A DNA stretch of 64,000 bases from Pseudoalteromonas luteoviolacea (GCF_001750165.1 NZ_CP015412.1:1143588-1207587); one strand, 5' to 3'. Shown: positions 26,864-39,319, counted from the stretch's first letter. The notes: generated by a model not told the origin, from the sequence alone. Program-made: numbers and translations.

Positions 26864-27646
26864 TTGCGGAGTTTAATAGCCTCAATAAAGAGGGGAGTCG
26901 TTATAATGCAGGATGGTCAATACAGTATTTCTTATAATAATCAGATAACTACTTCTCAAGATGATTGCAACAATGTTGTGGAAAGTAGCTATATTATCAG
27001 TGTTAAATCTTCTGAAAATGGTAGTTTGAACGTGTCGTTTATGCAAGGGTTTGACAGTTTCTTAGCTGCTTGCATTTGTCATGAAAATAATCGTGTTGGC
27101 ACTGAAATAAGTAAAGAAGATATATTCGATTTTATTATTTTTAATGACCCAGATTATGGTATGTATTTATCACAAGAAAGCATGCCTGATAATCGCCTAA
27201 TAATGGCATTAGACCGTGTTGCAGCATACGGAGAGCACACTTCGGAAGAGGTTTTTCAATTGCTTCAAACGCAGATGATTCGAGATATTTCAATCATCGC
27301 TTTAAAAGAATTAGACGAAATAAAGAACAACGCACAAATGACCCCGGTGGTAGGACAAAATAAAACAAGATTAGCTAAAAGTGAGCAAGGCGAAGCAGGG
27401 TGTAAGCTTTCAATATTAGAATTAAAGAAAATAATAGGAGAGCAACCTAAAGGAGATTATGAAGCACTGTTGAGCGATGCTTGGGAAGCCGTGCACAATC
27501 AAAAGTGCTATCAAAACACTGGCATACAGTATGTATGTTATGAGTTGGATAAGAGTGATTCCCTGGCTTATCATGAGTCCGTTTATCACTCATATACTCT
27601 CAAACAACATAAGCATATTATCAGAAGAATTGTCCGTATCGATTAA
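26864..27646 (+). CDS. hypothetical protein
   Basis: 260-aa ORF. No recognisable motif. Confidence 0.4.
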   Translation: MRSLIASIKRGVVIMQDGQYSISYNNQITTSQDDCNNVVESSYIISVKSSENGSLNVSFMQGFDSFLAACICHENNRVGTEISKEDIFDFIIFNDPDYGMYLSQESMPDNRLIMALDRVAAYGEHTSEEVFQLLQTQMIRDISIIALKELDEIKNNAQMTPVVGQNKTRLAKSEQGEAGCKLSILELKKIIGEQPKGDYEALLSDAWEAVHNQKCYQNTGIQYVCYELDKSDSLAYHESVYHSYTLKQHKHIIRRIVRID

Positions 27647-28476: not shown

Positions 28477-28515
28477 GTTATAAATTGCTGTTATAAATTG
28501 CTGTTATAAATAGCG
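28477..28515. promoter_or_regulatory. three tandem 13-bp direct repeats GTTATAAAT(TGCT), each containing a -10-like TATAAAT
   Basis: gttataaattgct gttataaattgct gttataaatagcg read directly, 179 bp upstream of the first gene of the PspA-flotillin cluster. Confidence 0.4.
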
Positions 28516-28693: not shown

Positions 28694-29104
28694 ATGGAAT
28701 TAAATGAGCTTTCCCTCAAACTCTCTCAGTATGAAACTGAAGGGGCCAGTTTTGAGTCCTTTTTTATCAACAATGTTGGACAAGAAGTTCTACAAGTTAT
28801 TGTTGATGGAAATGATGAACTTCCAATTTTTGTTACCCGAACAGAAGAGCAAATCTTGTGTATTTGTTATTTGTTCTCAGAGCAAGAAATAACTGCACAA
28901 AAGCAAGCTGAATTAAACGATACATTATTGCGCTTAAACGTACCTATGCCGTTGAGTGCATTTGCTAAGATTGACAATAAATACGCAATTTTTGGTGCGC
29001 TTTCTACAAATTCAACACTTGAGCAGCTTGGTCATGAGATTGTCACTTTATCTGCCAACTCGATAGATGCGTTAGATGCAATTAGTGATTATTTGACTGA
29101 ATAA
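28694..29104 (+). CDS. DUF2170 protein, YjfI-like
   Basis: 136 aa. Alignable by eye to E. coli YjfI (IFVTRTEEQILCICYLF / YAIFGALSTNSTLEQLGHEIVTLSANSIDALDAISDYL versus the YjfI segments recalled from memory). Confidence 0.65.
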   Translation: MELNELSLKLSQYETEGASFESFFINNVGQEVLQVIVDGNDELPIFVTRTEEQILCICYLFSEQEITAQKQAELNDTLLRLNVPMPLSAFAKIDNKYAIFGALSTNSTLEQLGHEIVTLSANSIDALDAISDYLTE

Positions 29105-29119
29105 TAAGGAGTATTAATC

Positions 29120-29812
29120 ATGAGTATTTTAAAGAAGTTATTTACTGCGGTTAAAGGTGGTGTGAATGAAGTGGGTGAAGGCATTGTTGACGCCAATGCA
29201 ATTCGTATTTTTGAGCAAGAAATTAGAGATGCCCAAGCCGCATTGAATGATGCCAAGCGCAGCCTAACAGAAGTGATGGCTAAGGAAATACAGACTACAC
29301 GCGCTATCAAAAGTCTCGATGAAGATATCGTTCAGCACGAAACTTATGCTGCGCAGGCACTTGATAAAGATGAAGAAACTTTGGCGCTTGAAATCGCTAG
29401 TAAAATAGCCGAGTTTGAGCAGGAAAAAGCAGAGCAGCAGCAAGTGCTCAATACGTTTGCGACTAATGTGAGCAAGCTTAAAGAGCAAATTAAGCAAGCT
29501 GAAAAAACCATTGTTGAGAATCAACGCCAACTAAGCATGGTTAAAACCACTGAAAGCGTACAAAAAGCAACCATGGCTGTGAATGATACTATGGCATCGG
29601 GTGACTCTGCGATGACATCTGCGAAACAGTCACTTGAGCGTATTAAACAGCGGCAAATGGACAGGCAAGATCAACTAGATGCAGCACAGCAATTAGCTGA
29701 TGAAAATAGTGATAAATCACTTAATGATAAAATGCGCGCAGCTGGTATCGGTGAAGAAGCAACAAAGGGCGCAGATGTATTGGCTCGGATCCGAGCAAAA
29801 CAAAATAAGTAA
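29120..29812 (+). CDS. PspA/IM30/Vipp1 family protein (YjfJ-like)
   Basis: 230 aa, all-helical coiled coil. N-terminus MSILKKLFTAVKGGVNEVGEGIVDANAIRIFEQEIRDAQAALNDAKRSL matches the PspA/IM30 family start. 16 bp after the yjfI-like gene. Confidence 0.85.
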   Translation: MSILKKLFTAVKGGVNEVGEGIVDANAIRIFEQEIRDAQAALNDAKRSLTEVMAKEIQTTRAIKSLDEDIVQHETYAAQALDKDEETLALEIASKIAEFEQEKAEQQQVLNTFATNVSKLKEQIKQAEKTIVENQRQLSMVKTTESVQKATMAVNDTMASGDSAMTSAKQSLERIKQRQMDRQDQLDAAQQLADENSDKSLNDKMRAAGIGEEATKGADVLARIRAKQNK

Positions 29813-29817
29813 CACGG

Positions 29818-30138
29818 ATGAGTGAAAATAAAAAAACTTGGCAAAAGCAAGAAAAGGCAGTTAGAGCTACACAGCTTGCTTTTGACTTAAGCTCCGAAGT
29901 GCAAAAATTTATTAAGAAAAACGCAATTGATGAGGAGCTCACCCCATCGGATATGATCCGACGGATCCTAGGATTAGAAATAAAATCAAAAAAAACGCGC
30001 CAAAGGCTTAGTTTTAATTTAAGCGATGAGGAAATTGGGCTGCTGGCGGAGCGTTTTGACATTGCTGATGGAGATAAGCGTATGGTAAAGCAAAAGGTTG
30101 CTGATTTGCTTATCCAGCATGTCAAAAACAGTAAGTAG
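29818..30138 (+). CDS. hypothetical small protein, possibly tandem ribbon-helix-helix-like
   Basis: 106 aa, starts 6 bp after the PspA stop. Segments KKTRQRLSFNLSDEEIGLLAERF resemble RHH beta-strand/helix starts. Weak call. Confidence 0.35.
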   Translation: MSENKKTWQKQEKAVRATQLAFDLSSEVQKFIKKNAIDEELTPSDMIRRILGLEIKSKKTRQRLSFNLSDEEIGLLAERFDIADGDKRMVKQKVADLLIQHVKNSK

Positions 30139-30199
30139 CGCTTTTAAAAAGAGTACATGTGGTTTGAATAGCCCCTAACTCATAGGAACACAAAAGATT

Positions 30200-30808
30200 A
30201 TGGACTTTCTCAATACTATTTTTACTTTTCCCACCGTGGTGTTTACCACTTTATTGCTTATCGTCATTATTTTTTGGCTGATTGCGCTGTTAGGTTTTGC
30301 TGATATCGATATGCTAGAAGGCGACGTTGAGCTTGAAGTTGAGGGGGGCAGCGATTCTTTCTTGCAAATGGGATTTGGTGGCGTACCGCTGACTATTTCA
30401 ATTAGTTTAGTGGTGCTGATCAGTTGGGTTGCAAGCTTTTACGCACATCAACTATTTGCTTATGCTTTAGGCGATGGGGTGATGTTTTATTTACTTGGCA
30501 GTTTGATGATGCTTGGCTGTTTTGTAGCTTCCATTCCTTTAACCGCTTTATTAGTTAAACCTTTGAGACGCTTTTTTGATAGTAAGGAAGCGGCGTCTAA
30601 AAACGACTTTATTGGTCTTGAATGTGTGATTGCAACAAGCAAAGTTAACAGCCAATTTGGCCAAGCAAAAGTCCAGTTTCAAGGTACAGAACAATTGATA
30701 GAAGTCAGAGCCGATGAAGAGGGGTTGTTTGGACTTGGCGATGTCGCGCTACTAATTGAACACGATATTCATAAAAACAGTTACTTAGTTGTTGAAAAGC
30801 CTTGGTAA
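30200..30808 (+). CDS. YqiJ/NfeD-like inner membrane protein (DUF1449, C-terminal OB-fold)
   Basis: 202 aa. Multiple TM helices then a soluble C-terminal beta domain (GQAKVQFQGTEQLIEVRADEEGLFGLGDVALLIEHD). Same layout as E. coli YqiJ, the partner of flotillin YqiK. Confidence 0.65.
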   Translation: MDFLNTIFTFPTVVFTTLLLIVIIFWLIALLGFADIDMLEGDVELEVEGGSDSFLQMGFGGVPLTISISLVVLISWVASFYAHQLFAYALGDGVMFYLLGSLMMLGCFVASIPLTALLVKPLRRFFDSKEAASKNDFIGLECVIATSKVNSQFGQAKVQFQGTEQLIEVRADEEGLFGLGDVALLIEHDIHKNSYLVVEKPW

Positions 30809-30950
30809 TAATAACGAATTAAGTCATCAATAATATTTAATCAACTTCTCCAATTTCTATCATGGTGATTGGGGAAAATATCCCATGGCAGCTCTACGTG
30901 AAAACAAACATAGCCATGGTTTGGAATAATTAAAACATTTAGGAATACAC

Positions 30951-33050
30951 ATGGAATTTTTAGATAATCTCGGACCAATTTTAACAATCGTTGGCGTGGT
31001 CATCGCCGTTATTTTTGCGATTATTTTAATCGTGGGGAAGTTTTATCGAAAAGTGGATCAAGGGCATGCGCTCATTATTAACAAAATGAAAAATGAGCCA
31101 GATGTCACAACTACGGGGGGCATTGTTTACCCTGTTATTCATAAAATGGAGGTGATGGATATCTCAACCAAACGCATGGTATTGGAGCGCAGAGAGAACA
31201 GCGGCTTGATCTGTAAAGATAACATCCGTGCAGATATTGCAATTACCTTTTATATTCGCGTTAATGAAAACAAGCAGGACATTTTACGTGTTGCCAAGCA
31301 AGTTGGCTGTGCACGCGCTTCTCAACCTGAGACTCTACAAGAGCTGTTTGAAGCTAAGTTTTCCGAAGCACTGAAAACAGTGGGTAAGCAAATGAACTTT
31401 GAGGAGTTGTTTACCCATCGTAACCAGTTTAGAGATGCGATTAAAGAGGTGATTGGTCAGGATCTATCTGGTTATACATTGGAAGATGTTGCGATTGATT
31501 ATCTAGAGCAAACCTCCATTCACAAACTTGATGAAAACAACATTTTGGATTCTGAAGGGATCCGTCGCATTACCGAAAAAACAGCGGAACAAAACGTTCA
31601 AACCAATCAACTGAAGTGTGATGAGCAAGCGCAAATTGAGATCCAAAACCAAGCGGCGTTAGAGAAGTCGTTGGAAATCGAGCGTCAAAAAGAAGATGCT
31701 AAAGCAAAGCAGCAGCGCGAGATTGAAACGGTCCGTGCAAGGGAGACGGCTGAAGCGGAACGTGTAAAGCAAGAAGAACGTTTGAAGTCAGAAGATGCAC
31801 GCTTAAAAGCAGATGAAGCAATTGAGATTGCCGAGCAAAACAAACAGCGTGAAATTGACATTGCTGAACAAAATCGCCTTCGTGTACTGGCCATTGAAGA
31901 AGAAAAAGTGGCGCGTTCTCGTGAAATCGAAGTTATTGAGCGTGAGAAAGAAACGGAAATCATGCGCATTAACAAAGAAAAAGCGCTTGAAGTGGAGCGT
32001 AAAGAAATTGCTGAAGTGTTACGTGACAGAGTAGCCGTTGAGAAAACGGTTGCAGAAGAACAAGAGCGTATTAAAGATGTGCAAACATTGGCAGCTGCAG
32101 AGCGGGAAAAAGAAGCAATTGTGATTAAAGCCAAAGCAGAAGCAGAAGAAGCACTGGTGAAAGATATTGAAGCAGCTAAAGCGCAAGAGCAAGCGTCAGA
32201 GTTCAAGGCGAGAGAGCTTGAAAAAATGGCTGAAGCTGAGCTGCGTATCGCAAATCAAACGGCTGAGTCGAAAAAAGTGTTGGCGGAAGCAGAGCGCGCA
32301 GAAAAAGCGGCAGCTGGTTTAGCTGAAGCCGAAGTTACTAAAGCGAAAGCAGAAGCAAACGCGCAGCAAGGTGAAACGGAAGCACAAGTATTGCAACAAA
32401 AACTGGCGGCAGAAGCACAAGGTAAACGTGACATCGGTTTTGCAGATGCTGAAGTGCAATCGGCAATGGCTGAGGCAATTGAGAAACAAGGTGAAGCGGA
32501 AGCTCAGACACTTGAACGTCGTATGTCAGCAGAAGCAAAAGGCCTTGAAGAGAAGCTACAAGCGTTAAATGCGATGGATCAGTCGGCGCGCGATTATGAA
32601 AGCTTTACGTTGCAGCTTAACCAGCAAAAAGAGTTAATGCTTGCTAAATTAGAAGCTGAAAAAGACATTGCAGCGCATCAATCTGAAGTGCTTAGTAAAA
32701 CACTGGGTAGTGCAGACATCAACATCATGGGTGGTGATGGTCAGTTCTTTAATCAGTTTATGAAGGCTATCACACTCGGTAAGTCAATTGATGGCTTAGT
32801 GGGTGAGAGTGATACAGTACAAACCTTATTTAAAGATCATTTAAATGGGGAAAGAAATATCATGGATGACCTAAAAGGTGTTTTAAGTGGTGCGAATGCG
32901 TCATCAGAGACGATGAAAAATGTGGCAATGAGTAAGTTTTTTAGTCAGTTAGGAAATAGCAGCGATGCTGAAAAGCAGCAGCTTTTAGCGCTACTTGGTA
33001 GTACGCTAAACGGCAATTCGAAGCAAGTTGAGTCAAACGAGCAGAGCTAA
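30951..33050 (+). CDS. flotillin family protein (SPFH/band-7 domain; YqiK/FloT-like)
   Basis: 699 aa. N-terminal TM anchor. SPFH domain (residues ~40-250). Very long E/A/K-rich coiled-coil flotillin region. C-terminal tail. Confidence 0.85.
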   Translation: MEFLDNLGPILTIVGVVIAVIFAIILIVGKFYRKVDQGHALIINKMKNEPDVTTTGGIVYPVIHKMEVMDISTKRMVLERRENSGLICKDNIRADIAITFYIRVNENKQDILRVAKQVGCARASQPETLQELFEAKFSEALKTVGKQMNFEELFTHRNQFRDAIKEVIGQDLSGYTLEDVAIDYLEQTSIHKLDENNILDSEGIRRITEKTAEQNVQTNQLKCDEQAQIEIQNQAALEKSLEIERQKEDAKAKQQREIETVRARETAEAERVKQEERLKSEDARLKADEAIEIAEQNKQREIDIAEQNRLRVLAIEEEKVARSREIEVIEREKETEIMRINKEKALEVERKEIAEVLRDRVAVEKTVAEEQERIKDVQTLAAAEREKEAIVIKAKAEAEEALVKDIEAAKAQEQASEFKARELEKMAEAELRIANQTAESKKVLAEAERAEKAAAGLAEAEVTKAKAEANAQQGETEAQVLQQKLAAEAQGKRDIGFADAEVQSAMAEAIEKQGEAEAQTLERRMSAEAKGLEEKLQALNAMDQSARDYESFTLQLNQQKELMLAKLEAEKDIAAHQSEVLSKTLGSADINIMGGDGQFFNQFMKAITLGKSIDGLVGESDTVQTLFKDHLNGERNIMDDLKGVLSGANASSETMKNVAMSKFFSQLGNSSDAEKQQLLALLGSTLNGNSKQVESNEQS

Positions 33051-33071
33051 GCATCGTTTGAAATGATGAAC

Positions 33072-33095
33072 AGAGCATGCGTTCTAGCATGCTCT
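33072..33095 (+). other. intra-operon RNA hairpin (9-bp stem agagcatgc/gcatgctct, 6-nt loop) between flotillin and giant ATPase genes
   Basis: Perfect inverted repeat read directly in the 87-bp gap, with no strong T-tract. Candidate attenuator or processing site. Confidence 0.35.
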
Positions 33096-33137
33096 CACCT
33101 TTCTAATTACCCTCCTTGTACAACAGGACAGTAGACT

Positions 33138-36100
33138 ATGACGGACTCTGCAAATAATGCCGCACTAGAACAGGGCTCTTATGATTTAATCAAGCGCCGT
33201 TTGAGTAACTCGGGTGCCCAATTGCGCACAGACATTGATTTACTCAACCAAAACCGTATAGATACCTTTGGCAGCACTGAAATCAAAGTAAAAGGGCGTG
33301 CTAGAGTAAGAACAGAACACAATTGTATACCACGAGATATCGTGCTCATTGGTGATAAACTCATCTTTGCTTACAACGTATTTTTAGGATTGAAAAAGAA
33401 TACTCAAGTAGGTGATGTGTTCAGTGTTCAAAAGCTAGTTCAGCAAGATGATCACTATGAGGTAGAAGCATATCCAAGTGAAACAAAGTTTCTCACAGAC
33501 AATCGATTTTTGAGAGATTTTGACGAGTTATATACCTATTACAAAGAAACCCGCTTACAGCATTTATTTCAGCAAAATGGCAAGCTTTACGCGCTATTTC
33601 AAATCGGTGACAAGCTCACCGATGTACGAGTCTTTCGTTGGGAGATAGCAGCAGATAACACCCTTGATTACATAGATAATCGCGGCGAACGGGATTTAAA
33701 TACGGGTCAGGACTATGACTTTGAATGGATAAAAACCGATAGAAGTAATCATGTAGAAGGTCGTCATCCGCATATTAATATTCTTGATACCGTGTTTGTT
33801 GAGACGGTTGGTGGCGATCTAACCATTAAAATCGAGAATAATACTGAAAGTGGTGAAGGGATCTATGCGGAGCCAGTTGAAGATAAAAACCAATCCCTCG
33901 CTGATTGTGATGTAGATTATGCGAAGCTTGGCGAAATCATCTTACTTAAAGTGCTACCTTATCGCGAAAAGGTTTGGCGCTATTATATTTTCAATTGTGT
34001 GACCGAAAAGGTCATCCGCCAAGATGCTATTTCAGATGCATGTGTACAACTTCCTGATGACCACGGCATAATTTTCCCAGGTGGTTACTATTTACAATCA
34101 GGGCAGACTCGTTCGTTTGAAGACCACATTGAAAACTTAGAATTTCATAAGCAGATAAAATCTCCTAATGGTGAGGATGTTTTATATGTTTTTTATGAGC
34201 CAAGCGAAGGGCGCTACGCATTATTTGCCTATAATCTGATCGAGAAAAACCTTCAAAACCCAATCTATTGTCATGGTTATGGTGTCTATGAAGATGGTTT
34301 AACCATCACCTTCAAGGCTGAAAAGGAAGAAGCTGAGCGCGTTCATCCAATTCAGATCTGGGATAGCCCATTTTGCTCTGTTGAGTTTGCTGCCAATGCG
34401 CCTACACCAAGCAGTATGCTGGGTAAGATTGGGAATCCAGATTTGGTGCGAGGTATTTCAGATCTATACAGTGTTTGCAAGGCTATCAGTGAGCAAAATC
34501 CCAATGTGTCTCACTATGAAAGTTTGATCTCGTTAACACGCAGTATCTTAGACAGATATCACTGGCTAACAGAGCCTGACTTTACACCTCTCAATACTCA
34601 ATTACATGAGATATTTGAAACCTCTGAGCAGGTTTTGGATGAGTTTGAGAAAGTCAGCCAAATACAAGAGACAGCCAAAAAAGCACTGGCTGATATTGAG
34701 CAAGAATATAAGGCGACCACTAAGGATATTCGCCCTGATAGCTTTAAACTGGCCACTGAATTTGTCACAGGCCTTGAAGCGCTTAAGCTGCTTAAAGGCA
34801 AAATTATTAGCTTGGAAGAGGTAAAATATATAGATGTTACCGCTTTGCAAGCGCTGCAAATACGCCTTGATGAGCTGACTTTAGAGTTGAGTAAAGCGAC
34901 GGCGCAATTTTTACAAAAAGAGGCTGCTTTAGCGCCTTATCATGACAAACTCGGTGAGCTCACCGGCTTGAGCGAGAAAAGTGAGAGTGTCACTGAGCTC
35001 AATGGATTTTTAGATGCGTTAGATACTCTGGGCGATGAGCTTGATTTACTCAATCATACCATGCTTGATTTAGAAATCGATGATAGTCGTGTTAGAACAC
35101 AGATCCTAGAGGATGTCAGTGGTGTTTATGGCTTGGTTAATCGAGCCAAAGCCAGTATTGAGATCCGCCGAAAAAGTCTTGGTAGTGTAGAGGCAAAAGC
35201 GGAATTTGCAGCGCGTTTTAAACTGTTTAGTCAAAGTATTACCAGCAGTTTGAACAACGCGCGTACGCCGGAGCAATGTGATGAGCAGCTCTCTCGCTTG
35301 TTAATTCAATTAGAAGAGCTGGAGTCTCAGTTTAGTGAATATGACGAGTATCTTGCTGAGATCATGGCCAAGCGCGATGATGTCTATGAAAGCTTTGAAG
35401 CACATAAGCAGCAGCTGATAGATGAAAGGCAGCGCAGAGCACTAAACTTAGCCAATGCCGCTGAGCGTATTTTGCAAGGGGTAACTAGACGCTCACAAAA
35501 CTTCACTGATATTGATGAAATAAACAGCTATTTTGCTTCTGATCCTATGATCAGCAAGTTACGCAGTTTGACGCAAGAGCTTAAAGATCTGGGTGATGAG
35601 ATTAAAGCGGATGATATTCAAGCTAAGCTAAAAGCGTCTAAAGATCAAGGGATCCGCTCTCTACGTGATAAGCAAGATATATACAGTGATGGTGGTAACT
35701 CGGTCAAAATTGGCAAGCACAATTTTGGAGTCAATAAGCAGCAACTAGACTTGACTTTATTGCCTCGTGATGAAGATTTGATGTTTCATCTTACTGGTAC
35801 TGAGTATTTTGAGCCTATAGGGGATAAGCGTATTCGCGAAACTTTGCTGGCTTATCGCCCATATTGGCAGCAGAACTTAGTCTCTGAAAATAACGACATA
35901 TATCGTGGTGAGTTTCTAGCCGCGCAAGTGCTGACAGCGGCGACAGATCCGACTCACGCACTGACGCTTGATGGGTTAAATGCTGCGATAGCTGATGATT
36001 CACTGCTCACGTTAGTGCAGAAATTTGCAGAGCCTAGATATCAAGAGGGTTATGAAAAGGGCATTCATGACCATGATGCAACCTTGATCTTGCAAAACTT

Positions 36101-39100
36101 GCTGGCACAAAAACAGGCGTTAGGATTATTGATATACCCTACATCAGCGCGTGTGGTAGCGCAGCTGTATGCAAGTCAATGTGATGACAAGCAATTAATC
36201 AAGTGGCGCGAGCAGTCTAAGCAGGCTGAGTTGATGGAGACCTTGTTAGGTGATGCGCGATTTAAAGTGCAGCTAGCCACTGAACTTGGCGAGGTGATCA
36301 CACAGTTTGCACAAACTGATCTAAACCGTTACCTGGGTTACACATCGGCCTTATCTGGACAGTTAAGTGCTGAATATTTAATCAAAGAGTTGGCGCACAG
36401 CAAAAAAGACCTTGTTTTTTCGACCTCCCATACGGTTAAAAAATTAGCCGAGCAATTTAACAGTGTTGCCAGAAGTAAAGGGTTTGCAGGTTCACTGCAA
36501 GATACGTTGCAGGCATTGGAACATATGCAAGATCAAGCCATTATGGCAACTAGCTGGCTTAACGCATATGGACAACAGCATGATACAGAAGTCAGTAGCG
36601 ATGATTTGATCGAGGCGGCTAATATGGTGCTATTACAGCATCTAAAAACGGCTAAGTTCAACGCGCAAGATGTGGCCGTCACTAATCAAGTTAATGGGCT
36701 GTTAGGTCAACATATTCGTATTGATGAGCAAGTATTAACGCTTGATTACTCGGAGTTTTTTGCGCGTACAGAGCTGTATTTGGCTGAACATGTACGTGGG
36801 TTTAGTCACTATCATGAAATTAAGTCTGATATTTTGGTAGAGCAAAAGGAGCGTTTACAGCTCGATGAATTCAAGCCAAGGCCATTGAGTTCATTTGTCC
36901 GTAACCAATTGATTGATAAAGTTTACTTCCCAATCATTGGTGACAACCTTGCGAAGCAAATTGGTGCGTCAGGTAATAACAAGCGTACCGATTTAATGGG
37001 GATGTTGTTACTTATTTCTCCACCGGGTTACGGTAAAACGACGCTGATTGAATATGTTGCCAATCGACTTGGTTTAACGTTTGTAAAAGTGAATTGCCCA
37101 TCAATAGGCCATGATCAGGTTTCACTCGACCCAGGCCAAGCGATCAATGCAACGGCCGCAAAAGAGATTGAAAAAATTAATCAGAGCTTTGAAATGGGCA
37201 ATAACGTCATGCTCTATTTGGATGATATTCAGCATACCAACCCTGAATTCTTACAAAAATTCATTTCACTTTGTGACGGCTCTAGGCGTATTGATGGCGT
37301 ATGGAATGGTCGCAGTAAAACCTATGACCTACGTGGTAAAAAGTTTGCAGTTGTGATGGCGGGTAATCCTTACACTGAATCTGGCGAGAGCTTTAAAATT
37401 CCAGATATGTTGGCTAACCGTGCCGATATCTACAATTTAGGTGACACTTTATCGGGTTGTGAGCAAGAGTTTGCAATGAGCTTCATTGAAAATGCACTCA
37501 CCTCAAACGCAGTGCTTGCGCCACTTGCCAACCGTAACATGCAGGATTTGTATAAATTAGTGCGTATTTCTGAAGGCGAAGACATCTCTCTAAACGAGCT
37601 GGAGCATAACTATTCGCAGGCGCAAGCAAATGAAATTGTATCTGTGTTACAAAAGCTTATTCAGATAAGAAATACCGTATTGAAGGTGAATGCCCAGTAT
37701 ATTGCCTCCGCAGCGCAAGACGATGATTATCGTATTGAGCCACCGTTTAAGCTGCAGGGCAGTTATCGAAACATGAATAAGATGGCTGAAAAAGTGGTGG
37801 CGGCAATGAATGATGAGGAATTAGAAAACCTTATTCAAGATCATTACCGCGGTGAGGCGCAAACGCTCAGCAAAGGCAGTGAGGAGAACCTCCTTAAACT
37901 CGCTGAGCTACGTGGTACGTTGGACGAGCAGGCAAGAGCACGTTGGCAGCAGATTTTAGATGATTACGCGCTACTTAACCGAGCCAATGATGCAGGCAGT
38001 CCAATACTACTTGCTGTCGAGCAACTTGGTGAACTGAATGAGTCACTCACCAGTATTGCAACAAAGTTGGATAAAGAGCAATTAAGCCATAATTACTCAG
38101 CCTTGTTTGAATCTCTGAATCAAGTGGTCAGTGCGCAAGACGCCAATGACAGCATACAGTCGGTAGCAAAAGTGATTGAACAAACTGCGCAGCAGTCGTC
38201 GCTTACGGCATCATTTGAGCAGCTTATAGGGCTTTTGGCTGAGCAGCATCAGCAAAGGCAGACACACAGTGAACATTTAGCGCATCAAGGCGTGAATACG
38301 ACTGAGACGCTGGTGGACAAGGTGAATGAAACATTGGCACAACTTACTGGCGCTTTAAATACTCAGTCAGAGCGTTATTCAGAGCAAGCACAGCTCGATG
38401 CGCAAAGAGCGGATAATAGACTTGCTTCACAGCAAGCTTTAACAGCGGCATTGTCTGAGCAGTTACAACAAGTCTCGGGTGCAATTGAGAGTCAGCGCGA
38501 CAGTCAGATTAGTAGTGCAGAGCAAAGTGCTTTAAAACATAGTGAAGGCATGGCAAGGCACGGCGCAGAACTTGCGAAGTTAGCTGATGAATTAACAAAA
38601 TTGCGAAGTACATTGAGTGCTCAAAACACGCTCAAAGAATCGCAGGTAGAGCAATCTAAAGGGCATCAGCAGGCTTTAGTAGAGTGTGTTTCCAGCAAAT
38701 TGGAGCATATGGCTAAGGTGTTGGAGGCGCAAAACTCAGTTGCACATCACTCGCGTCAGTCCGAGCTGTTAGCGCAACAAAGTGAAGCGTTAAAGGTGAT
38801 GGCTAAAAAGACTGATATCGGTGACGCTTTATCTGGGCTCAGCCGCGACTTTTTAAAAAGCCAAGATGTGCTAGGTCTCAAGTTAAAAGAGGTACTTGAG
38901 TCTAGTCAGCACCAAACGGCAGAACAACTTTCAAGTGTTTCAGGAGAGTTGCAAGAGCATCATGATGAACTGACTACACAGGTACAAGTGCATAGCTCTG
39001 TGTTGGAGCAACTAGTTGCTCAGCTGCGAGAGCAGGTGGCGAGTGCACAGCAAGCGACACCGAGTGATGAAGTGGCACTTGCATTGAGTGAGTTGGTCAA

Positions 39101-39266
39101 CACTGCGTTACCTTCGCTGGTGCAACAGGCAGAGCAATCAAGCACCCTAGACCCTGAGATTGGTCGCAAAGTGGATGTGATTTTAGAGCGCCTAGCACGT
39201 ATTGAGCGACAGCCTGCACCGAGTCAAGGTTCAAGTCAAAATAGCGATAACCCTTATATGCTTTAG
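33138..39266 (+). CDS. giant (2042 aa) coiled-coil protein with a single embedded MoxR/AAA_5-type AAA+ ATPase module
   Basis: Walker A ISPPGYGKTT (nt 37017-37043). Walker B LYLDDIQH (nt 37212-37235). MoxR/AAA_5-like sensor segment VVMAGNPYTESGESFKIPDMLANRADIYNL. Beta-rich N-terminal ~420 aa. About 850 aa of helical/coiled-coil region before the ATPase. Q/A/L/S-rich low-complexity coiled coil over the last ~500 aa. Confidence 0.7.
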   Translation: MTDSANNAALEQGSYDLIKRRLSNSGAQLRTDIDLLNQNRIDTFGSTEIKVKGRARVRTEHNCIPRDIVLIGDKLIFAYNVFLGLKKNTQVGDVFSVQKLVQQDDHYEVEAYPSETKFLTDNRFLRDFDELYTYYKETRLQHLFQQNGKLYALFQIGDKLTDVRVFRWEIAADNTLDYIDNRGERDLNTGQDYDFEWIKTDRSNHVEGRHPHINILDTVFVETVGGDLTIKIENNTESGEGIYAEPVEDKNQSLADCDVDYAKLGEIILLKVLPYREKVWRYYIFNCVTEKVIRQDAISDACVQLPDDHGIIFPGGYYLQSGQTRSFEDHIENLEFHKQIKSPNGEDVLYVFYEPSEGRYALFAYNLIEKNLQNPIYCHGYGVYEDGLTITFKAEKEEAERVHPIQIWDSPFCSVEFAANAPTPSSMLGKIGNPDLVRGISDLYSVCKAISEQNPNVSHYESLISLTRSILDRYHWLTEPDFTPLNTQLHEIFETSEQVLDEFEKVSQIQETAKKALADIEQEYKATTKDIRPDSFKLATEFVTGLEALKLLKGKIISLEEVKYIDVTALQALQIRLDELTLELSKATAQFLQKEAALAPYHDKLGELTGLSEKSESVTELNGFLDALDTLGDELDLLNHTMLDLEIDDSRVRTQILEDVSGVYGLVNRAKASIEIRRKSLGSVEAKAEFAARFKLFSQSITSSLNNARTPEQCDEQLSRLLIQLEELESQFSEYDEYLAEIMAKRDDVYESFEAHKQQLIDERQRRALNLANAAERILQGVTRRSQNFTDIDEINSYFASDPMISKLRSLTQELKDLGDEIKADDIQAKLKASKDQGIRSLRDKQDIYSDGGNSVKIGKHNFGVNKQQLDLTLLPRDEDLMFHLTGTEYFEPIGDKRIRETLLAYRPYWQQNLVSENNDIYRGEFLAAQVLTAATDPTHALTLDGLNAAIADDSLLTLVQKFAEPRYQEGYEKGIHDHDATLILQNLLAQKQALGLLIYPTSARVVAQLYASQCDDKQLIKWREQSKQAELMETLLGDARFKVQLATELGEVITQFAQTDLNRYLGYTSALSGQLSAEYLIKELAHSKKDLVFSTSHTVKKLAEQFNSVARSKGFAGSLQDTLQALEHMQDQAIMATSWLNAYGQQHDTEVSSDDLIEAANMVLLQHLKTAKFNAQDVAVTNQVNGLLGQHIRIDEQVLTLDYSEFFARTELYLAEHVRGFSHYHEIKSDILVEQKERLQLDEFKPRPLSSFVRNQLIDKVYFPIIGDNLAKQIGASGNNKRTDLMGMLLLISPPGYGKTTLIEYVANRLGLTFVKVNCPSIGHDQVSLDPGQAINATAAKEIEKINQSFEMGNNVMLYLDDIQHTNPEFLQKFISLCDGSRRIDGVWNGRSKTYDLRGKKFAVVMAGNPYTESGESFKIPDMLANRADIYNLGDTLSGCEQEFAMSFIENALTSNAVLAPLANRNMQDLYKLVRISEGEDISLNELEHNYSQAQANEIVSVLQKLIQIRNTVLKVNAQYIASAAQDDDYRIEPPFKLQGSYRNMNKMAEKVVAAMNDEELENLIQDHYRGEAQTLSKGSEENLLKLAELRGTLDEQARARWQQILDDYALLNRANDAGSPILLAVEQLGELNESLTSIATKLDKEQLSHNYSALFESLNQVVSAQDANDSIQSVAKVIEQTAQQSSLTASFEQLIGLLAEQHQQRQTHSEHLAHQGVNTTETLVDKVNETLAQLTGALNTQSERYSEQAQLDAQRADNRLASQQALTAALSEQLQQVSGAIESQRDSQISSAEQSALKHSEGMARHGAELAKLADELTKLRSTLSAQNTLKESQVEQSKGHQQALVECVSSKLEHMAKVLEAQNSVAHHSRQSELLAQQSEALKVMAKKTDIGDALSGLSRDFLKSQDVLGLKLKEVLESSQHQTAEQLSSVSGELQEHHDELTTQVQVHSSVLEQLVAQLREQVASAQQATPSDEVALALSELVNTALPSLVQQAEQSSTLDPEIGRKVDVILERLARIERQPAPSQGSSQNSDNPYML

Positions 39267-39279
39267 CATATGAACAATG

Positions 39280-39319
39280 AAAAAGTCGATGAGCTATGCC
39301 GTCGGCTTTTTCTATTTTA
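39280..39319 (+). terminator. rho-independent terminator after the giant gene
   Basis: aaaaagucga ... ucggcuuuuu forms a 10-bp stem (one G-U) around a 12-nt loop, followed by tttttctatttt. 14 bp after the stop codon. Confidence 0.45.

Follow-up and report, generated by a model that had tools for sequence, protein, structure and literature searches.

What does a very large ATPase do when its gene lies beside those of a flotillin and a PspA? The question is raised by a stretch of 64,000 nucleotides (nt) from Pseudoalteromonas luteoviolacea (GCF_001750165.1, NZ_CP015412.1:1143588-1207587; the window, in whose numbering all positions are given here). Positions 33138..39266 of its + strand encode a protein of 2042 amino acids (aa) with the domains DUF3686 and DUF7902 and one AAA+ module, carrying the database name 'DNA repair ATPase'. 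We argue that this giant protein is most likely the ATPase subunit of a flotillin module, made up of a YqiJ/YuaF-type membrane protein, an SPFH scaffold and the DUF3686-AAA+ protein itself. The module is extended here by a YjfI(CesT-like)-PspA(YjfJ) pair.

The giant gene and its family

Translation of the window gives a single uninterrupted open reading frame (ORF) with an ATG start, and AGGA can be read from the sequence ~9 nt 5' of that codon. GC content is flat along the gene, at 0.42-0.43, and we judge that an ORF of 2042 codons at 42% GC cannot have arisen by chance. A search of 5.8 billion proteins returned 6454 relatives at E ≤ 1e-3, of which the 120 listed were used for conservation; the N-terminus of the giant protein aligns with these 120 homologues without gaps. 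The closest relative, a Pseudoalteromonas umbrosa protein, aligns over 100% of the length at 93% identity. All 120 carry PF12458 (DUF3686), PF25472 (DUF7902) and AAA, and most also carry AAA_5. The giant protein itself has every feature by which the family is recognized, namely DUF3686, DUF7902 and one AAA+ module ~1250 aa in, with flotillin and YqiJ-like genes upstream, and sequence comparison confirms it as a 93% orthologue in a known, bioinformatically described family. Since full-length homologues occur across genomes, a misjoin is excluded. An assembly chimera had been raised as a concern in the first-pass annotation of this DNA, which was made from the sequence alone; it is ruled out because Stenotrophomonas, Corallococcus, Sorangium and Cystobacter, whose genomes are complete, have the same architecture from end to end. 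The uninterrupted 2042-aa ORF of that annotation stands, and its motif positions are exact, our own count on the translation giving identical nt and aa coordinates.

The family is widespread. A scan of species-representative genomes for the peptides LYLDDIQH and MAGNPYTE found it in at least 600 of them. The plasmid collection, in which several of the matching records have the size of a chromosome, contains homologues 39-49% identical over aa 1-1640 in Proteus, Pseudomonas fluorescens (pQBR103), Deinococcus, Streptomyces, Nonomuraea, Hymenobacter, Vibrio, Photobacterium and Halomonas.

Operons of the present arrangement have been described in PMC11237479 (mSystems 2024; bioRxiv 2020) around a CesT/Tir-PspA dyad (yjfI-yjfJ), which a PLD hydrolase sometimes joins; abbreviated flotillin-YqiJ(-ATPase) operons are reported there to be more widespread. 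The supplementary table of that survey gives the protein as 'Betapropeller+Coiled-coil+AAA-ATPase', and the authors propose that it acts like a chaperone when complexes linked to the membrane are put together. The first-pass annotation had called a single AAA module in a giant coiled-coil protein next to flotillin and PspA unusual. This is not borne out, since the protein belongs to a Pfam-defined family found in several phyla, with an operon already on record. Our literature search for DUF3686, PF12458 or 'DNA repair ATPase' plus flotillin found no paper, and the ATPase is unmentioned in a P. aeruginosa SPFH survey and in a 2009 paper on SPFH evolution.

'DNA repair ATPase' is the NCBI family name, and Pfam describes DUF3686 as 'ATPase involved in DNA repair'. 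The label finds no support in the sequence analysed here. Our guess is that it was perhaps inherited from a coiled-coil resemblance to SMC/SbcC-type entries, and it should not be propagated.

Domain organization of the giant protein

Two AlphaFold models cover the protein, one for aa 1-1200 (mean pLDDT, the predicted local distance difference test score, 79.9) and one for aa 1151-2042 (mean pLDDT 70.5). DUF3686 spans aa 29-475 (33222..34562, +; Pfam E 1.5e-193, profile positions 2-448 of 448). In the model, a helix at aa 14-44 is followed by ~28 beta-strands at aa 50-410, with pLDDT ~80-88 for the DUF3686 region. The top Foldseek matches of this N-terminal domain in the PDB are beta-propellers (IFT-A, clathrin heavy chain, tricorn and prolyl oligopeptidase), at probability 0.9-1.0 and E 1e-7 to 1e-3 with low TM-scores, and the domain can be described as propeller-like on the strength of the model. 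The beta-rich N-terminal domain that had been read from the primary sequence is thus borne out, with a propeller-like fold predicted by AlphaFold and Foldseek.

Long helices at aa 415-846 form an arm, inside which lies DUF7902 (aa 597-680, 34926..35177, +; Pfam E 6.9e-21). The stretch beyond it, aa 856-1170 (35703..36647, +), had no family match in the Pfam/NCBIfam-type model scan. It is modelled as a small beta subdomain (aa 856-893) and a compact helical domain (aa 897-1170), the latter with pLDDT ~90 over aa 930-1170; the 120-homologue alignment has a conserved block at aa 951-1000. Given this compact domain, the middle of the giant protein is not coiled coil throughout. Of the ~850-aa helical or coiled-coil region proposed earlier, the long helices up to aa 846 therefore remain, but the beta subdomain and the compact domain do not fit the description.

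The alpha/beta core of the AAA+ module (aa 1250-1450, 36885..37487, +) is defined by Pfam AAA and AAA_5 matches, by the alignment and by the model. It is followed by a conserved helical lid or C-domain (aa 1451-1640, 37488..38057, +; pLDDT 84-94, confident in the model at aa 1450-1620, with invariant columns), which bears the motif RxEPxFxLQGSYRNM, invariant in an alignment of 38 sequences. The remainder (aa 1641-2042, 38058..39263, +) is a lineage-variable tail rich in Q, L, S and A, modelled as long helices of low confidence. The earlier proposal of a Q/A/L/S-rich C-terminal region of ~500 aa was correct as to composition for aa 1641-2042, but its first part is the conserved lid. The tail itself is unconserved, with identity to the homologues of at most 0.12 and gaps of 37-90%. 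After the QGSYRNM motif it is 503 aa long in this protein, against a median of ~225-235 aa and a family-wide range of 104-574 aa. QGSYRNM itself stands at a fixed distance from the N-terminus (1526-1567 aa in 119 homologues).

Regional identity over the 120 homologues is ~90% for aa 1250-1450, 44-75% for aa 1-1000, weaker for aa 1001-1250 (26-47%) and almost nil beyond aa 1650. More than half of the protein is modelled as long helices. No transmembrane (TM) segment was found, the Kyte-Doolittle mean over 19 residues peaking at 1.47. The domain order with one AAA+ module agrees with the first-pass annotation in Pfam matches, conservation and AlphaFold models alike.

The AAA+ module

The Walker A motif SPPGYGKTT (aa 1294-1302, nt 37017-37043) contains the lysine K1300, and the Walker B motif LYLDDIQH (aa 1359-1366, nt 37212-37235) the acidic pair D1362-D1363. 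The segment VVMAGNPYTE...ANRAD (aa 1405-1430) supplies sensor-1 N1410 and, 18 residues on, the candidate arginine finger R1428, the one arginine in the sequence past sensor 1. K1300, D1362-D1363, N1410 and R1428 are invariant in 38 sequences from several phyla, and Walker B is DD, not DE, in every one of them. The module, which begins at about residue 1200-1290 in full-length relatives, is the best-conserved part of the protein (62-90% identity across phyla).

Its clade is less simple than its motifs. Searched as an isolated segment, the module has PF00004 AAA as its top Pfam match, at 38.6 bits over profile positions 1-72 of 131 only, a match that does not take in the second region of homology, with its two arginines, of classical AAA proteins. 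AAA_5 (PF07728) scores 33.1-33.6 bits against a cut-off of 22 over profile positions 2-127 of 139, while AAA_3, the MoxR model, falls below its cut-off of 27 (14.9 bits, E 0.025). The check suggested in the first-pass annotation, a top match to AAA_5 or AAA_3, thus has a mixed outcome. With the whole protein, Pfam gives weak AAA, AAA_5 and AAA_22 matches at aa 1288-1415, those to AAA and AAA_5 at aa 1290-1415. A family profile built from the 38 sequences matched PDB sequences in the Walker A half only, best to NVL, Rix7, p97/Cdc48 and RuvB; the matches to NVL, Rix7 and p97 end after strand 2, and the best 60 matches include no MoxR or dynein protein. Used as a single query, the giant protein was likewise matched in the Walker A half alone. 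For the giant protein, the NCBIfam scan gave only RuvB P-loop matches (E 2e-4 to 1e-3), far under the cut-offs.

Structural features lean the other way. AlphaFold places a two-strand hairpin at aa 1384-1397 (nt 37287-37328), directly before strand 4 and sensor 1; the pre-sensor-1 insert, a feature missing from the classical clade, lies at this position, and the hairpin may be termed pre-sensor-1-like in the model. The best AAA+ fold matches of the model are midasin, dynein and CbbQ, all weak. MoxR/AAA_5 proteins have the pattern NP...G...LP...R, which the spacing from N1410 to R1428 fits.

From this mixture of Pfam, PDB-profile and hairpin evidence, we read the module as an AAA_5-like family of its own, whose first half looks classical and whose second half is not of the Vps4/FtsH kind, and not as a member of MoxR. 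The MoxR/AAA_5 assignment of the first-pass annotation accordingly survives in its AAA_5 half, since AAA_5 passes its cut-off across the domain and the modelled hairpin agrees, but not in its MoxR half. Its separation of the module from the Vps4/FtsH clade holds for the second half, where PF00004 stops at position 72, but not for the Walker A half. Its exclusion of an SMC/Rad50-type ABC ATPase was sound: Walker A and B lie 60 aa apart, and Pfam and NCBIfam give no SMC or Rad50 match. So was its statement that no VWA gene is seen, as no VWA model matched the six operon proteins or the identified neighbour clusters of 80 related loci, most minor clusters being unscanned.

The family looks isolated by these comparisons. 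A phmmer search with the AAA+ module against 1.84 billion cluster representatives gave 877, 644 and 359 matches at E 1e-3, 1e-10 and 1e-30, without an outgroup: each of the best 150 matches listed looks like a family member or a fragment of one. The related loci offered no usable MoxR or other AAA+ gene as a profile-profile reference.

The operon and its conservation

The giant gene is the last of six same-strand genes that run from 28694 to 39266 with short gaps and, by this arrangement, form one operon. Gene 1 encodes a DUF2170/YjfI-like protein (28694..29104, +; Pfam DUF2170 E 7.4e-36), a type classed as a CesT/Tir-type chaperone in PMC11237479. Gene 2 encodes a YjfJ-type PspA/IM30 of the ESCRT-III superfamily (29120..29812, +; PspA_IM30 E 9.3e-41, full profile). 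Gene 3 encodes a 106-aa protein (29818..30138, +) that matched nothing in Pfam or NCBIfam. The product of gene 4 (30200..30808, +), a 202-aa membrane protein, has hydrophobic segments in its N-terminal part and a beta-rich soluble domain in its C-terminal part. The family test for this protein is weak (Pfam YqiJ_N E 0.02, in one relative only) and its family profile matched nothing in the PDB; the assignment to the YqiJ/YuaF (short NfeD-like) type is taken from PMC11237479 and the sequence pattern. Gene 5 encodes a 699-aa flotillin-like SPFH protein (30951..33050, +; Pfam Band_7 E 2.1e-07) with an N-terminal TM segment, the Band_7 domain and a long coiled coil rich in E, A and K. Flotillin and PspA, which the first-pass annotation had named as neighbours of the ATPase, are thus both recovered by Pfam.

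The operon appears to be closed by a strong terminator-like hairpin (39279..39312, +), a 13-pair stem followed by a T-run, which begins 13 nt past the stop codon of the giant gene. The gene beyond it is convergent, on the - strand, and encodes a protein of the metallo-beta-lactamase fold.

The linkage to flotillin extends far beyond Pseudoalteromonas. We compared 80 related loci from many phyla, ~70 of which include upstream sequence. A flotillin homologue lies upstream on the same strand in 67-68 of the ~70, with a median gap of 81 nt; the YqiJ-like gene is directly 5' of flotillin in 64 of the 80, and the order YqiJ-like gene, flotillin, giant gene holds in 64-68 of them. PspA is present in 24-29 of the 80 loci, a DUF2170/CesT-like gene adjoins it in 22-29, and homologues of the 106-aa gene stand beside this dyad in 9-10. 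From these frequencies, the conserved core consists of the YqiJ-like gene, the flotillin and the ATPase, with PspA as an accessory.

A possible role in remodelling flotillin assemblies

We propose, at roughly even odds (a probability of about 0.5), that the ATPase is recruited by a flotillin/YqiJ assembly, oligomerizes, and drives the remodelling of flotillin cages, with or without PspA polymers, at the expense of ATP. That assembly would bring the giant protein, which is soluble, to the inner membrane on its cytoplasmic side, binding it through the protein's N-terminal beta-propeller and helical arms; the propeller is a typical partner-binding fold, and its prediction is counted in favour of the proposed role. 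The single AAA+ module would then oligomerize, probably as a hexamer, and ATP binding and hydrolysis would assemble, open or disassemble the flotillin cage and/or the PspA (ESCRT-III-type) polymers. Such remodelling would serve membrane maintenance or an envelope-stress response, and the variable Q-rich tail would act as a spacer.

AAA+ machines can be housed or regulated by SPFH cages, FtsH with HflK/C being an example, and Vps4, itself an AAA+ protein, recycles polymers of ESCRT-III. SPFH proteins are described in the literature as building closed cages, and the SPFH protein YdjI is required to place PspA on the B. subtilis membrane, according to PMC8581546. We favour the remodelling role because the gene belongs to a same-strand operon with a terminator, is linked to flotillin, has a conserved AAA+ module and encodes a protein with no TM segment and a propeller-like N-terminal domain, and also because PMC11237479 independently arrives at chaperone-like assembly at the membrane. 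Counted on the same side are the joining of the module to a PspA-YjfKLMC array on pQBR103 and the TelA or PLD-like genes that some lineages have downstream.

Several points weigh against this role. The invariant DD of Walker B may indicate slow, switch-like hydrolysis rather than a processive unfoldase, and AlphaFold predicts the AAA core with no more than moderate confidence (pLDDT 50-80). Pfam finds no MIT or other known ESCRT-III-binding domain in the protein, and roughly two thirds of the related operons lack PspA, so PspA is not a universal substrate. In two loci from Labilithrix/Myxococcales (L058 and L069), the 6 kb upstream of the ATPase contain no flotillin homologue. Finally, our literature search found no experiment on any family member.

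A broader and more tentative possibility, which we rate well below the remodelling role itself, is that the family is the first dedicated ATP-driven machine for assembling and disassembling bacterial flotillin (SPFH) cages, in a Vps4-like capacity. The propeller-plus-helical-arm front end, whose domain order is as in the clathrin and IFT-A Foldseek matches, would here be fused to an AAA_5-like motor, and where PspA is present the machine might couple flotillin domains to PspA-mediated membrane repair. In the literature searched, no ATPase is experimentally tied to bacterial flotillins. A conserved ATPase of flotillin operons in hundreds of species, sometimes with PspA, is a clear handle on flotillin function and on the turnover of flotillin assemblies. 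With all six genes present, the window gives a full copy of the operon from a genus that can be cultured. Specialists aware of the 2024 survey will find little surprise in the locus, and the family offers a testable entry to the control of bacterial flotillin assemblies.

Alternative explanations

The protein could instead be a static tether or scaffold that carries an ATP switch and whose helical arms and tail link flotillin domains to each other or to another structure. Its DD-type AAA+ module would then be a slow, nucleotide-gated oligomerization switch, not a remodelling motor. DnaA-type switch ATPases bear a similar DDIQ motif, and the invariant DD of Walker B, the predominance of long helices and a freely varying tail length, as expected of a spacer, are all in keeping with such a role, which is also kept alive by the lack of a known ESCRT-III-binding domain and of PspA in most operons. 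However, purifying selection is strongest on the ATPase and its lid, including the sensor-1 and arginine-finger positions, which suggests that hydrolysis between subunits matters, and the fixed distance to QGSYRNM is unlike that of a mere spacer. We therefore consider a static scaffold unlikely, if still worth keeping in view. A strict MoxR-type chaperone that matures or inserts a specific client, as RavA, CbbQ and MoxR do, with the N-terminal region in place of the VWA partner, seems to us quite improbable. It can draw on the AAA_5 score above cut-off over the whole domain, on the pre-sensor-1 hairpin of the model, on CbbQ, midasin and dynein as top fold matches, and on the spacing NP...G...IP..LxNR, which by inspection resembles the MoxR motif. 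Set against the MoxR group, however, the giant protein fails AAA_3 and has no VWA/MIDAS partner in its operon or among the identified conserved neighbours. Its Walker A half is closer to classical AAA and its Walker B is DD, and its one AAA+ module sits within 2042 aa (the family core being ~1600-1900 aa), where MoxR is a stand-alone protein of ~300-350 aa and the group otherwise includes a six-module ring.

Large coiled-coil NTPases are common in defence systems, and an abortive infection-like conflict system, in which the large NTPase senses infection and the membrane proteins are the effectors, is favoured by the copies that megaplasmids (pQBR103, for example) and plasmids of Deinococcus, Streptomyces and Hymenobacter carry, and by a PLD-like gene after the giant gene in 6 loci. 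Yet PADLOC gives nothing for the ATPase, the flotillin or the YqiJ-like protein, and for PspA only weak coiled-coil matches to the LmuB, JetC and PbeC models (E 7e-05 or weaker). The other neighbours in the window are of housekeeping type (GNAT, MarR, symporter, methyltransferase) and the GC content is even; synteny and sequence are strongly conserved across phyla, unlike those of fast-evolving defence islands. An anti-phage function is thus very improbable in our view. Least credible, and close to negligible, is the function that the database name implies, a DNA repair ATPase of the SMC/Rad50/SbcC kind. Nothing speaks for it but the labels in Pfam and NCBI and the weak RuvB similarity, confined to the P-loop. 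The two Walker motifs lie in one AAA+ domain with no coiled coil between them, Pfam and NCBIfam give no match to an SMC, Rad50, nuclease or DNA-binding domain, and the genomic context is one of membrane proteins in nearly every genome.

Comparison with known systems

The nearest known counterparts are the CesT/Tir-PspA-YqiJ/YuaF-Band-7/flotillin operons of PMC11237479, which the present operon resembles in domain order, Pfam families and order of partners. The sole difference in the ATPase is the unusually long Q-rich tail; at the level of the operon, the Pseudoalteromonas subgroup adds the 106-aa gene between pspA and the YqiJ-like gene. The likeness to MoxR, RavA, CbbQ, midasin and dynein lies in the module: the AAA_5 match, the modelled hairpin before sensor 1, the spacing from NP to arginine and the fold matches.

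A functional analogy can be drawn with FtsH-HflK/C and QmcA-YbbJ (SPFH with NfeD), as an AAA+ protein is here genetically coupled to an SPFH scaffold and an NfeD-type partner of the inner membrane. Unlike FtsH, however, the giant protein has no TM anchor and no protease domain, and the second half of its AAA+ module is non-classical; its SPFH partner is of flotillin type, in contrast to HflK/C. Vps4/CdvC with ESCRT-III, and PspF or other AAA+ proteins with PspA, are comparable in that the AAA+ gene here is next to a gene for PspA, of the ESCRT-III superfamily. In Pfam terms, the giant protein differs from Vps4 and PspF in having no MIT domain, second region of homology or sigma-54 activator motifs, and most of the family's operons lack PspA.

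Other observations on the locus

The gap that separates the flotillin gene's stop codon from the start of the giant gene contains an intergenic hairpin (33073..33098, +), consisting of GAGCATGC, 6 nt and GCATGCTC; its 8-bp stem is perfect and it has no T-run. It might set the ratio of flotillin to ATPase expression. At the other end of the operon, the 376-nt gap 5' of gene 1 contains ~2.5 copies of the tandem direct repeat gttataaattgct (28479-28510), with TTGACA shortly after it, at ~28590. An operon regulator might use the repeat as its operator. In the 106-aa protein, two ribbon-helix-helix-like repeats (TQLAFDLS... and RLSFNLS...) can be made out by eye, and this protein might act as a regulator. 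Its homologue is sometimes encoded on the opposite strand, with a divergent PspA unit (for example in loci L013, L037 and L059 of the sample). NCBIfam scores the DUF2170 protein at 59.7 bits with its Pseudomonas model 'biofilm formation regulator BacA', under the cut-off of 300; the match may tie YjfI-like proteins to a named biofilm phenotype. Further upstream of the operon, at 26864-27646, an ORF of 260 aa starts with TTG and matches nothing in Pfam; it is flanked by genes for an M43-like metallopeptidase and a GNAT acetyltransferase.

Among the related loci, the flotillin gene is 3-4 kb from the ATPase in Lampropedia (L043) and Sorangium (L060), so other genes have been inserted between the two. 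A TelA gene lies downstream of the ATPase in 13 loci, including that of Stenotrophomonas (L012, 12582-13730; Pfam E 9e-69), the PLD-like gene mentioned above in 6 (e.g. L005, 12387-13106; PLDc_2 E 8e-33) and a gene for a zinc-ribbon protein in 6 (e.g. L009, 4945-5574). The Pseudoalteromonas window has none of these three downstream of the ATPase. A further arrangement was seen on pQBR103, a megaplasmid of Pseudomonas fluorescens SBW25 (L081, NC_009444.1 85437-104524), where all the genes form one fused same-strand array. The flotillin/ATPase module there directly follows PspA-rhomboid-YjfK-YjfL-YjfM-YjfC, the rhomboid being a protease, and a MvaT/MvaU gene comes after the ATPase. This array joins two types of PspA operon, the polyamine type, represented by YjfK, YjfL, YjfM and YjfC, and the flotillin/ATPase type, that are kept separate in PMC11237479.

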